Origin: Eledone cirrhosa
Taxonomy: Eukaryota
Length of the DNA stretch: 64,000 nucleotides
Assembly (NCBI GenBank): GCA_964016885.1
Contig: OZ024756.1
Span: 43,648,001-43,712,000, forward strand
Direction of reading: 5' to 3'
A program made the translations under genes and the position numbers. The notes below the pieces were generated by a model, which searched no databases, was not told the origin of the DNA, and saw only the letters and a program-made list of their open reading frames with translations. Within the stretch, counting starts at the first letter, position 1; every line of letters begins with the position of its first letter. This document shows positions 16,241 to 61,424 of this stretch, in pieces.

Positions 16241-16333
16241 ATGGGGGCAGTCGGCGCTTATTTCTGCCCAACCTGTTGAGGACTATGGTAATAGTTATGG
16301 TGATGATGATGATGGCTCGTTCCACTTCAGGCG
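16241..16333 (+). CDS. IgSF gene copy B, exon 1 (signal-peptide exon; 5' end may lie in the N gap, internal ATG at 16285)
   Basis: Frame reads GGSRRLFLPNLLRTMVIVMVMMMMARSTSG (basic, hydrophobic, then small residues). It ends ggc g|gtaagt, a consensus phase-1 donor that joins in frame (GGG, Gly) to exon 29837. Confidence 0.65.
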
Positions 16334-16985
16334 GTAAGTTAAGACAAAAGACAATTTAATTTTCCCCATGTTGCTCTCTCTGTCTTTTACACACTCCACC
16401 TCTCTCTCTCTCTCTCTCTGTTATATACACTTTCCTCCTCTCTTACACGCAGGTAGTGGAGTAGCAGTAATCGGTAGAGTGACAGGTACCCTACTTCGCG
16501 ACATAGAGTTATAACCCTTTACATTCTCAGTTCAAATCCAGCCGTGGTTAGCTTTGCCTTTCCTCCTTACAGGGTCGATAAAATAAAGTATCAGTCACGC
16601 CCTGTGGTCGATTTAATTAAATTTTCCTCACCCCTAAAACTGCTGACTTTGTTCCTTAATCAGATACGATTATTACTCTGTTTCCCCCCTTTTATTTTCC
16701 TCTCTCCCTCTCTCTCCTCCTCATCTCTCCCTCCCCTCTCCTCCTCATCTCTCCCCCTCAATATATGCCCAGGTAAGACATTCGCCCTACCAGCCAAATA
16801 TACATGGTTCAGCTTTCATCAGTTACAGTTCCGTCCCTTGTTAGTCTTCTAACTTTGTATATTAATACCTGTTTGAGATCAATAGTAGTAATGCTATTGT
16901 GTCATTGAAAACTGTATTTTAAAATATTGATAAAATCAGTTAACTATTTCCTTTAACTAGAGTCGGGTTTCGTCATGTAAATAAT

Positions 16986-17172
16986 TTTTTCTATTTTAGG
17001 CACAAGGCCAGCAAAACCCAGTACATTACTGGTACTTTATTTTATCGACCCCGTAAGGATGAAAGGCAAAGTTAACCTCGGCCGGATTTGAACTCAGATC
17101 GTAAAGGGGCGTAACTATGCTGGAAAGCATGTCCGACCCTCTACCGATACTGCCAATTCACCACCCTTCACC
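16986..17172 (-). mobile_element. Meta-like SINE with a 19-bp target-site duplication
   Basis: TSD gtttcgtcatgtaaataat at 16967-16985 and 17173-17191. Confidence 0.88.
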
Positions 17173-17289
17173 GTTTCGTCATGTAAATAATATCTGAATT
17201 TAAGAATATAGTGTTTTATAAATGTCAGTCAGTTTGTATGTGTCTATGTGTATAAGGATTCGAGACAAGTCTTCAGTCTGAAGATAATG

Positions 17290-57200: not shown

Positions 57201-60200
57201 AATGTGTCCATTAAAGTCTTCTGCAATGATTAGGAAGGCATTGTAGTTTGTTAGGGCAGTAGTGTGCATTAAGGACTCGTAAAACCTGATGATTCTTGCA
57301 TTCACCCTGTTCACTGAGATTACCTTATCTACCCATTCACCACCCAATCCGTTATCATTTTCCACCCAGAAAAATTTATAGCACTGATTTTTACCTACAA
57401 TGACTCTAGTGGCCTCTCCATCTAGTCTCTTTCATGCTGCATACATCAATTTATTTTCGCTCTAACATCTCTACGATTTTTCCTGCTCTTCCTTTCATTG
57501 CGCTTATGTTGATGTTGCCAACTCGGATTTTTGGGTATTTGCCATCACTCGTGGGATGGGGTGGATTTTTGCGGAGCAGTGTGTATGCTTTCTGTCTCTG
57601 AATTAAAGCTTCGCATGGGTGCTTGGTAACTTGTGGATTCATATTCATTTATTTATTCGGGGTTGTTCCATTATCCTCAGCTCATCCATAGATAACGGTA
57701 AAAAGAATTCTTTGGTGCAGGGCTAGAAGGGCAGTAGTAGTAATGGCAGAATTTGTTGGTGCTGGTGATGGGTGAGGATATGTTGCTGTGGTTTGATTGA
57801 TCGAAAAGCCTGTGAGGTTGGGTGGTAGGTAAATTGTGAGATAGGTAGCCATCAAGGCGTATATCGTTGCAGAAGATTCAGGGGAAATAAGCAGATACAA
57901 GTAGGCATATTCGACGACTGTGTGAGAATTTCAAAGATGGTCACCAACTAAATGAAAGATGAGTTGGCAATCTTTAAAAATCCATAGAGAAGGTCAAAAG
58001 CAGTCGAGATTTGTAACACCGAAATGAGTGAGAGAAAGGGGTAGAATGGCGGGGCTTTGCGATGAGTTCGTAGAGACAGAGAATGTAAAGTGGACGTGTA
58101 GGCGCCACGGGAAAAAAACACCCAGCACTCACTGTAAATGAGGTTGATGTTAGGAAGGGCATCCAGCTGTAGAAATCAAGCTAGAATCAGTTCCAGTATG
58201 AGCAAGACAAGGTCAGCCGACTGGACAACCCGTCTAACCCATGCAAGTGACTTTGTCTTGCTCATACAGAACTGATTCTGGCTTGATTTCTACAGCTGGT
58301 TGCCCCCTCTTAACACCAATCTCATTTACAGTGATTACTGGGTGCTTTCTGCTGTGGCACCTACATGACCAGTTTACAGTGGGAGGGGGGGGGGCATATG
58401 TCTATATGCTTCAGCTTCGGGTCTTCTGTATTACTGCATAACGCCAGAGGTCTCAGTCCTGTGTCATTGCCATTCACAGGTGTCTATATATGTGTGTATA
58501 TATATATATATATGTGTGTATGTCATCATCATCGTTTAACGTCCATCTTCCACGCTTGCATGGGTTTGGACGGGAGTTTTCCCACTTGAGGCAAGATTGG
58601 TTGTCCTGCTCGTATAGGACTGTCTGGTGGGTTTTTTATGGCTGGATGCCCTTCCTAACACCAACCATGTTTACAGTGTGGACTGGGAGGTTTTTACTGT
58701 GTTACCTACACGGCCACATTACAGCGTGTACGTGTGTTTTTTTTTGTCGTGACACCTACACGACCTCATTTGTTTCGGACTGGATGTTGTGGTACCAACA
58801 TAACTTCACATTGAAAGGGGTGGTGTGGGACGGGGGTGTATTTTGTTAGGGTTGCCTACTGACTGTAGGTTTCGCTTTGTACTTAGGCAAAGCAGGTCTT
58901 CTGTATAACTGTGTAGCACCAAAGATATCGGTCCAGTGACATTGTCTTGGAGCGGTGTAAGTGTGTGAGGTCGGAATTTCTGGGTCTGCCTACTCCGTAG
59001 CTACCATCTAATTTGATCGCCCTGCACTTTTTCATACAGCTGTCGTCTTTCATGCGCATCACGTGACCATACCAACATAGTCTTCTCTCGAGTAAACAAC
59101 ATCTGATCCCTCTTATTCCTAATTTCTCCCTTAGTTCGTTTATGCTTTTGCTGTTCACATCCAGCTGAGCATGCAAGCTTCGTTTCTCTCCAGTCTGCGT
59201 ATATCCTCTGCACACAATGCCCAGGTCTTACTGCCATGTAACATTGCTGTTCGTATGCAGGTAACGGAAGGTGTCCACAATTTTTATAGAACCATCTGTG
59301 CAGTGGAATGAGCTAATATTCTGTGGGCACTTGCTGCTACTTATTGCACCAGAGCACCGGCCACATATAAAATCTATATTCTTAGTTAGCTTACCTGTGA
59401 TCCCACTACATCTTTTATGCACCCATACTTTGCATTTGGGACATAAAATGGAGTTTCTGCCTACTCCTTTCCTACACACTGAGCATGGCCATTTCCCAGA
59501 TGGGACCGGTGCCCTATTTTCCTTCCTACAAACTAGAACTTTAGTCTTAGACAAGTTAACTTTAAGGCCTTTTGATTCTAGGCCATGCTACCATGTTTGG
59601 AATTTCTTCTCTAGTTCGACCATTGATTCATTTATGAGCGTTAGATCATCTGCATATAGGAGTTTCCATGGGCAGCCGGTCTTGAACTCCTCTGTTATAG
59701 CCTGAAGGGCAATAATAAATAGTAAGGGGCTAAGAACGGAGCTGTGATGAACACCAACTTTTACGCTAAACTCTTCACTATATTCATTGTTAATTCTAAC
59801 CTTGCTGACTGTTTCTTTATACATGGCTTGTATAGCTCTCAGAAGCCATTCATCAACACCTAGTTTTCGAAGCGCCCACCAGATAATGGAGCGGGGGACT
59901 CTGTCAAAGGCTTTCTCCAAGTCAACAAAAGCTAAGTATAGGGGTTTACTTTTAGCTAGGTACTTCTCCTGTAGTTGTCATACAATGAAAAGATCGTCTG
60001 TGGTACTTTTACCTGACACAAACCCGAACTGCATTTCATCTAGATCAATTCGTTCTCTGATTAGTTGCGCTATTACTTTTTCTGTGACCTTTGTGACCTG
60101 GTCGATTAATTTAATGCCTCTATAGTTACCCCTATCTAGGGCATCTCCTTTACCCTTGTAGCAGTTAATGATGATGCTGCTACGCCAGTCCTTCGGAATG

Positions 60201-60449
60201 GCCCCATTCTGTATGACTTGGTTTACTATCCGGGTGACCATAGTGTGTCCCACCGTTCCAGATGCTTTCAGCATTTCAGCAACTATTTCCGAAGGCCCAG
60301 TCGCCTTACCTGTCTTCATATCTTTGATATGTATATATATATATATATATTTATATATATATATCATCATCATCATCATTTTACGTCCGCTTTTCCCTGT
60401 TTGCAAGGGTGGGACTTGCCCTATTCAGCACAGCATTCCACTTGTCACA
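54225..60449. repeat. Right arm of the large inverted duplication (partner 1-5870)
   Basis: Mirror ORFs, for example 132..473(+) vs 59978..60406(-) and 2569..2787(+) vs 57682..57900(-). Confidence 0.95.
54381..54695 (+). CDS. IgSF gene copy B, exon 3: C2-like Ig domain
   Basis: ttttatcttttcag| acceptor, a|gtaagc donor, 315 nt, phase 1-1: (M)KSALKQLTLD...ITFICTANV...VQFKW...ITITCSAFG...VSIVDK, with the Cys-Trp-Cys Ig signature. Confidence 0.85.
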
Positions 60450-61382
60450 GTCCTTCGTCATCTCCTCCGTGAGTGTCAGCGATCTGAGGTCTGCTCTCAC
60501 AACCTCCGCACATGTTTTTCGTAGTCTTCTTCTACTGCACATACATACACACACACACATATATATATACATACACACACACACACACACAGTGTACTCC
60601 CGACATTCGCTGGATTTTCCTTAGAACCTAATTGTTTGTGGAAGCCACCACATATTCACAGAATCGTAAATCTTTCGCGAAATTTTTGTGGCAATATATA
60701 TATTTTTAATGCTAAATTATTAGTAACAATTTACCATATTTGCTGGCCCCTCTTATTATATTTTACGTTATATTTTGTTGTTTGTGGTCATTTTTATGAA
60801 CCACGTCCAATATTCGCAGTTTTTCTCTCTTCGTGAGTGATCTAGGAACATAACCTCCCACGAATCCCAGGGAACAACTGTGTGTATATATATATATATA
60901 TACACACACACATACATATATATAGTGTTTATAGTCACCTACCTGGAAAAAATAATAAAATCTTGAATTACCGATTTAAAATACAAATTGAAAAATTAAG
61001 CAATAAATGAAGTTTATATAATCTGAAAAAATGTACAATGAACTTGAATTCCAATTAAATATTTAGGAAAGAATTCATTTGTAATTCATTTACTTCTAAT
61101 TACATTTAAAATATTGATTTAAGTTTCTGATCTAATTTTAATATTTTTTCTAGATCTGCATTCACCTTCCTCTCACATTTTTATCATCAGATGTAAATTT
61201 ATTACGAAGTCAAAACTTTCTTGAAAATACCTTTTATATATTTTGCATTGCAATTTCAAAATGTAGTTAAAAAGAAAATTGAAAATAAAAATGTTAAATT
61301 GTTACATTATTGCTCTATACAGTGCATGGAGTTGCATGATTTCTGTATGGTTCTTTTTTCTTTTTTATGTTGTCTTATGTAG

Positions 61383-61424
61383 TTAGCATACTAGCAACAC
61401 AAGCACCTGTTGTTGATACTGCAG
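61383..61424 (+). CDS. IgSF gene copy B, probable exon 4: short stalk/linker; gene continues beyond the window
   Basis: Long T-rich tract ending atgtag|, 42 nt, phase 1-1, reads (I)SILATQAPVVDTA, donor gcag|gtaagt, in frame with exon 3. Confidence 0.6.

Follow-up and report, generated by a model that had tools for sequence, protein, structure and literature searches.

What kind of gene is laid out as a few short exons within long, repeat-filled introns on contig OZ024756.1 of the cephalopod Eledone cirrhosa, and what might its product do? The window, that is, the whole stretch of 64,000 nt that was analysed, corresponds to G000:C17:43648001-43712000 of the 3.0-Gb genome, and a first-pass annotation had read from it a single plus-strand gene of the immunoglobulin superfamily (IgSF), herein named A. 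We find that A belongs to a cluster of about 13 related units (A to M) whose leader sequences are nearly identical and whose Ig exons carry an excess of amino-acid changes. As the predicted folds are antibody-like and amino-acid changes outpace silent ones, A is likely a variable cell-surface recognition protein. More specifically, we put at roughly one half the probability that A is a ligand-catching surface receptor or decoy engaged in an arms race against a partner that changes and is most likely a microbe, a reading drawn from sequence comparison and structural models.

The four exons of A within the window (Table 1) have AG acceptors at exons 2 to 4 and GT donors, and join into a single open frame with every junction in phase 1, just as the first-pass annotation had proposed. 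Its intron sizes of about 13.5, 24.2 and 6.7 kb correspond to 13,503, 24,217 and 6,687 nt, and its description of the introns as transposon-filled is equally apt: about 80, 64 and 86% of introns 1, 2 and 3, respectively, is repeat-like, taken as sequence with at least four matches within the 1.06 Mb of cluster sequence, and 9 of the 15 long open reading frames (ORFs) scanned match reverse transcriptase (RT), endonuclease or PHD families. Position 16241, proposed as the exon start, proved to be the edge of a 200-N assembly gap; in paralogues the leader frame begins 28 nt further 5', giving a 40-residue leader. The leader of A also has an in-frame ATG at 16285 and a hydrophobic core of 2.75 over 11 residues, and a signal peptide is predicted. 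The exon structure exceeds what chance would produce, since the paralogues have homologous exons that share its splice sites and phase; of the 17 V and 17 C exons, 16 and 15, respectively, are open. Intron 1 matches the 2.1-kb first intron of paralogue F in four collinear blocks of 78-95% identity, which supports the link between leader and V exon; both ends of intron 2 are homologous to the 4.5-kb V-C intron of sister gene B, and intron 3 differs from that of B at 47 of 4440 nt (99% identical). The introns of A are thus paralogue introns bloated by long interspersed nuclear elements (LINEs), which lends the exon links independent support.

The membrane-anchor exon expected beyond position 64000 was found 2.6 kb past the window end, and encodes, judging from sequence, the single transmembrane (TM) helix with basic stop-transfer of a type I membrane protein; it has weak Pfam matches to single-pass TM segments, below the cut-off. 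The cytoplasmic exon 1 that follows is conserved in A, K, L, M and I and measures 34, 49, 46 and 46 nt where its donor is intact, all in one phase. The suggestion that exons past the window might carry immunoreceptor tyrosine-based inhibitory or activation motifs (ITIM, ITAM) was right as to the exons and not as to the motifs: an ITIM, or the related switch motif (ITSM), occurs in none of the four predicted tails (A, K, L, M), and with no more than one Tyr per tail past the TM exon an ITAM is absent too. A last family exon with 3' untranslated region (UTR) is present for B, C, H, I, K, L, M and one orphan. As none was found for A, either genome-wide or in 300 kb downstream, A likely ends by read-through after 12 residues. 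A mini-exon candidate of 23-26 nt, 66 nt past the TM donor, would in A give a stop after 3-4 residues. By the sum of exon lengths the predicted protein has about 318 residues, and is predicted to be a type I protein composed of a signal peptide, a V-set domain, a C-type Ig domain, a stalk, one TM helix and a short Tyr-free tail.

The missing last exon, along with a homology to K, L, M and I that ends about 250 nt past cytoplasmic exon 1, raises the alternative that A is a decaying or silent copy with LINE-bloated introns, and that B and others are the working genes. Frameshifts or stops in H, J and M, and an RNA-like contig that fits B (see below), point the same way; yet A has an open frame in each of its six exons and has kept their splice sites intact, its V domain differs from those of the paralogues mainly by amino-acid changes, and L likewise ends by read-through of the same cytoplasmic exon. 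We therefore regard decay of A as unlikely.

AlphaFold2 models built from paralogue alignments reached a pLDDT score of 86.8 for the V exon and 85.2 for the C exon. The V model has nine strands by DSSP in a V frame that includes C'', and matches an antibody heavy-chain variable domain (VH) with Z 11.0 and a root-mean-square deviation of 2.4 over 96 residues, tied with a nectin-2/PVRIG entry and PD-1; T-cell receptor V domains and Dpr/DIP also match at Z 10-11. The structure search for Ig folds proposed in the first-pass annotation gave VH and single-domain antibody (VHH) entries as the top Foldseek rows for exon 2 (E 3e-4). Residues G13, C22 and C95 are invariant in 16 of 16 V exons, D89 is kept in at least 90% and position 93 is F or Y, corresponding to the A'-B Gly and the D-x-x-x-Y-x-C motif, with C95 placed on strand F by strand order. 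None of the 16 has the pin Trp in strand C, and all carry three invariant Cys besides those of the B and F strands. Pfam gave PF00047 in 3 of the 16 (best E 0.025, below the curated cut-off) and V-set in none. Exon 2 is accordingly predicted, on model and alignment, to encode a V-set Ig domain. The C model is a seven-strand Ig sandwich with C24, W40 and C88 invariant in 15 of 15 exons; its best matches are non-IgSF sandwiches (Z 12.7), followed within the IgSF by SIRP-gamma D2 (Z 9.9), VCAM-1 D2 (9.3) and SYG-2 D4 (9.1). The proposed leader-V-C2-stalk architecture is thus upheld for the V fold and for a C-type Ig sandwich; the label C2 is unproven, since Atlas scores C1-set and C2-set_2 equally at 0.94, with SIRP-gamma D2 and VCAM-1 D2 tied, and exon 3 is best described as a predicted C-type domain, C1 or C2. 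None of the 15 C exons has a Pfam Ig match, and neither profile found a PDB sequence match at E < 0.3. No homologue came up when the V profile was searched at longer and near lengths and the C profile at longer lengths, which is weak evidence; the two nearest Atlas V clusters are mostly from Mollusca where recorded (0.95 and 0.94). Structure prediction of a V homodimer scored 0.13.

In genome-wide searches, 17 V-like and 16 C-like exons turned up within C17:42.54-43.72 Mb, along with 12 leaders and 11 TM matches; two weak matches to family exons on other contigs were set aside. Mapping on 1.06 Mb resolved these into about 13 units, built as leader-(V-C)n-TM (n being 1 to 3), which follow one another over 1.2 Mb and together hold 17 V and 17 C exons, 13 TM exons and 12 leaders. 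A alone lies on the plus strand, and no family V or C exon occurs in the 200 kb left of the cluster or the 300 kb right of the window. Some units are broken: H lacks V and has a shifted C, J retains only a broken V, and the C of M is shifted. Among the TM exons 5 of 13 are in frame and 8 are shifted or stopped, including early stops or shifts in F, G, H, D and E, which are candidate glycosylphosphatidylinositol (GPI)-anchored copies. Shared constant cytoplasmic exons in the manner of clustered protocadherins were considered and rejected, since every intact unit comes with a TM exon of its own and seven units with a last exon of their own; so was a single giant multi-Ig gene, the units being set apart by leaders and TM exons.

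B lies head-to-head with A across the 200-N gap, within the window, and consists of the leader-V-C-stalk cassette of A joined at 62019 to a further V-C-TM unit. Promoter copies number 11 genome-wide, and as every one belongs to a paralogue other than A and B, the promoters of these two are absent from the assembly. The head-to-head arrangement, a C-stalk cassette 98-99% identical to that of B, and a scaffold piece carrying A that is exactly 202,000 bp long would suit A being an uncollapsed allele (haplotig) of B that was reversed by scaffolding. Depth in DNA-like runs is 3-9.5 in flanks particular to A vs 11-25 in stretches shared with B, about half, from which we conclude that both copies exist, depth being unable to separate paralogues from alleles. 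The identity stops at 54224 and 62019, the TM and post-TM region of A groups with K, L, M and I and that of B with C, the content of intron 1 differs, and there is no other long inverted cluster match in the 348 kb right of the gap. With identity limited to the cassette, 3' ends from different subgroups and no wider inverted match, an allelic origin of A is highly improbable.

For the ten young V exons the one-ratio model M0 gave an omega of 2.19 (p 0.002 vs omega 1), and for the ten young C exons 2.81 (p 0.0006 vs omega 1); on the full sets omega was 1.40 for 16 V and 2.20 for 15 C exons. Six of the 16 V exons and five of the 15 C exons, among the latter that of A itself, belong to other clades and are not in the young sets. 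The non-synonymous rate exceeds the synonymous in all 45 pairs of young V exons and in 42 of the 45 pairs of young C exons, pairs that are not independent. In a conservative column count, V has 96 non-synonymous and 19 synonymous changes (p 0.065 or 0.005 depending on kappa), and C has 78 and 12 (p 0.034 or 0.002). Between A and B, 23 of 327 positions differ in the V exon vs 2 of 150 in its immediate flanks; the identity of young V copies to that of A ranges over 69-85%. Eleven of the 24 most variable V sites fall within the 19 positions of the BC, C'C'' and FG loops (Fisher p 0.0002), with loop boundaries drawn after the model was seen. The leaders behave quite differently from the Ig exons: 8 of the 12 copies in the cluster are identical over 105 nt, and that of A is identical to those of seven paralogues over 117-179 nt, including L, whose V is 47% identical. 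The 3' UTR is identical across K, L and M (255 of 255). The much closer resemblance among copies in leaders and 3' UTRs than in Ig exons points to conversion. The V and C trees also disagree, A and B forming their own C clade while their V exons fall among the ten young ones.

Transcript-like evidence comes from run X1, which was taken as RNA-like from its behaviour, no run being recorded as RNA. A 439-nt X1 contig covers exactly 54381-54695, its match ending at both exon borders, and an intron bin that is covered by the DNA-like runs X2-X4, which cross the exon borders, has zero depth in X1. The contig has five differences that correspond to the C alleles of B and also occur in X2-X4, and unmatched ends of 81 nt (5') and 43 nt (3'). 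We simulated k=31 unitigs in two rounds of 14 and 9 transcript sets, Logan contigs being cleaned rather than pure unitigs. The 43-nt overhang equalled the stalk plus one shared base, and the combination of 81 and 43 was reproduced only by a V1-C1-stalk transcript of B with both V2 and TM continuations (1 of 14 and 2 of 9 sets). Adding D, E, F or C+D+G to the B-type set shortened the 5' overhang to 22-23, and sets lacking the stalk gave 3' overhangs of 70, 1 or 0. This agreement in overhang lengths favours splicing of V to C and of C to the stalk, with two continuations beyond the stalk, within the family and for a B-type transcript, not for A itself.

Several observations weigh against a receptor or decoy caught in an arms race. 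Recombination can bias omega and the null model used a kappa grid, and at kappa 1 the conservative V site count reaches only p 0.065. C appears to be selected as strongly as V; this fits relaxed, conversion-biased evolution as well as an ectodomain gripped in its entirety by a pathogen or partner. The frameshifts among TM exons include some in T-runs that may be long-read errors, the lack of ITIM or ITSM in the four tails leaves the signalling partner of a paired system unfound, and the X1 contig, with its five C alleles of B, fits the V of B; transcript sets with the V of A give 5' overhangs of 14 or 448 rather than 81.

The break of the X1 contig after the stalk, which implies two continuations, would also suit a self-recognition or cell-identity code, in which homophilic, isoform-specific copies, as in Hydractinia Alr, Dscam cassettes and Dpr/DIP, would act in neurons, skin or suckers, and alternative splicing from the stalk to V2 or to TM would add isoforms. 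One preprint describes the Alr genes as clustered V-set genes that Pfam does not detect and that show exon shuffling (bioRxiv 10.1101/2022.03.04.482883). Domains of Dpr/DIP, RIG-5 and SYG-1 score at most 1 Z below the top match of V. The tail of gene K ends in what we take to be a class I PDZ-type motif, which we count on the same side. Such a code mainly needs difference between copies, not an omega above 2 in both domains together with repeated loss of the tail, and about 13 genes are few for it; it is the strongest of the alternatives and in itself unlikely. A gamete or reproductive-tract recognition protein evolving fast through sexual conflict is improbable: multi-copy birth-and-death with tail-less copies is an immune-type pattern. 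That rapidly evolving families are typically immune or reproductive, as parts of PMC2832619 put it, is in favour of such a role.

Returning to an arms-race receptor or decoy, the family is best read, by analogy, as a CEACAM-like system of conflict-driven recognition of which A would be a short-tailed member. CEACAMs consist of a leader, a V exon and a variable number of C-type exons, as does the family here. The mammalian cluster is likewise tandem and shaped by gene conversion and recombination, with a diversified binding domain and TM exons mutated to GPI signals or truncated ends, and with decoys (excerpts of PMC2832619). The repeated unit here is V-C, however, rather than C-C, no member with an ITIM or ITAM was found, the V domain has five Cys and no pin Trp, and neither profile has sequence homology to CEACAM N or A/B domains (no PDB match at E < 0.3). 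Hydractinia Alr1/Alr2 resemble it as an invertebrate V-set cluster missed by Pfam and seen by fold, with exon shuffling and pseudogenes; according to passages of the same preprint, though, Alr domain 1 lacks the B-F cysteines kept here, Alr proteins have I-set and FN3-like parts and ITIM/ITAM tails, and Alr members are about 24% identical (bioRxiv 10.1101/2022.03.04.482883). Between C and TM we found no exon other than the stalk. As in the V-C tandems of B7, nectins and SIRPs, a V domain precedes a C1/C2-like domain and V-C pairs are duplicated as units, but there is no PDB sequence match and non-IgSF sandwiches score higher for C. The molluscan FREPs/VIgLs and CgIgIT2 share tandem Ig domains and, in portions of PMC11999971, a link to pathogen recognition; the present family, in contrast, has no fibrinogen or lectin domain and is predicted to be membrane-anchored, with a TM exon after C and stalk and two to six Ig domains in V-C pairs.

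We propose that the CDR-like loops (named after antibody complementarity-determining regions) of the V domain may bind the partner, and that V-C cassettes may be swapped by unequal crossing-over and gene conversion, as B would exemplify. The same processes could keep leaders and 3' UTRs alike, so that copies would be expressed alike, and could mutate the TM exon to yield tail-less copies. A, having no signalling motifs, would bind without signalling of its own, and the three extra Cys of V and one of C may include a V-C bridge that would make the pair one module.

Table 1. Coordinates of gene A, sister gene B and associated features (window positions unless a contig is given).
Feature	Position	Strand	Remarks
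B, C1 exon	5399..5713	-	96% amino-acid identity to C of A; B continues left as stalk-V2-C2-TM
B, V1 exon	10250..10576	-	85% amino-acid identity to V of A; 21 of 23 changes non-synonymous
Assembly gap between A and B	16041..16240	.	200 N; promoters and 5' leader ends missing
A, leader exon	16241..16333	+	5' end cut by gap; predicted signal peptide; paralogue comparison
A, intron 1	16334..29836	+	2.1-kb paralogue intron plus ~12 kb mobile DNA inserted at 17507-29436
A, V-set Ig exon (predicted)	29837..30163	+	Five invariant Cys, no pin Trp; alignment and fold
A, intron 2	30164..54380	+	LINEs, satellites and inverted-repeat element inside; ends homologous to B
C-stalk cassette	54224..62019	+	7.8 kb; ~98-99% identical to B; recent duplication or conversion
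A, C-type Ig exon (predicted)	54381..54695	+	Three invariant Cys, Trp40; alignment and fold
A, stalk exon	61383..61424	+	42 nt; present only in A and B
A, intron 4, part in window	61425..64000	+	5.2 kb in all
A, TM exon	G000:C17:43714629-43714742	+	Phase 1; basic stop-transfer; 2.6 kb past window end
A, cytoplasmic exon 1	from G000:C17:43715591	+	Read-through to 12-residue Pro-rich end and stop; 3.6 kb past window end

Further variation was observed within the cluster. A tandem second TM exon of the truncated class lies 300 nt past the TM exon of B (L038:1700-2170), and the first V exons of E and F (E_V1, L060; F_V1, L076) begin with an in-frame internal duplication of 13 residues. The last V and C exons are 109 kb apart in D and 117 kb in E, both without a gap, and 495 kb apart across a gap in F, so that this link of F is doubtful; genome-wide searches place no family exon in 258 kb inside the gap-crossing interval. 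The orphan last exon and 3' UTR (G000:C17:42483174-42484567, plus strand) sits 14 kb from a gap, with no upstream V, C, TM or leader exon found. The left neighbour of the cluster is an ORF (G000:C17:42389948-42390442, plus strand) that we take to resemble a dynein heavy-chain exon.

The window also holds several repeats. A 1392-bp perfect inverted repeat (37673-42223) surrounds a 682-residue ORF on the minus strand (38784-40832) with no Pfam match; its motifs suggest that the element is presumably a young Penelope-like element (RT plus GIY-YIG). A single-copy minisatellite at 33730-35030 is open on both strands and reads as Thr-rich repeats; the Thr-rich ORF at 33636-35135 was rejected as an exon, being a single-copy minisatellite with no evident splice sites. 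The simple-repeat satellites at 7321-10150 and 30256-32926, immediately past the V exon of B and that of A, respectively, are homologous and about 70-75% alike, and a LINE family encoding RT and then a PHD finger accounts for 16 tblastn pieces (for example 49318-50562, plus strand).

No description of this Ig family was found in the literature searched, although supplements of genome papers may list it. Those parts of two reviews on invertebrate IgSF and immune diversification that were available to us name no diversified cephalopod Ig receptor: in PMC11999971 they do not mention octopus or cephalopods, and in PMC13428168 they bring in cephalopods only for blood-cell formation. The receptor cluster, which we consider to be under positive selection, thus appears to be undescribed. 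Taken alone, A would be an ordinary IgSF gene; its significance lies in the cluster context; neither the inverted sister copy, which shares the window, nor the surrounding units were part of the initial model. A more far-reaching idea, speculative and rather unlikely, is that of a cephalopod-specific, germline-diversified locus in which V-C cassettes are reshuffled behind an invariant leader and spliced several ways to yield a receptor set per animal or cell, with membrane, tail-less and multi-module forms that would serve self/non-self or pathogen recognition; if true, cephalopods would have a recognition system of the variable-Ig type, of which no description in this group was found. Collectively, a Pfam-invisible, positively selected cluster with CDR-like variation, modular growth and tail-less copies would offer a locus for studying how these animals may recognise microbes or self.

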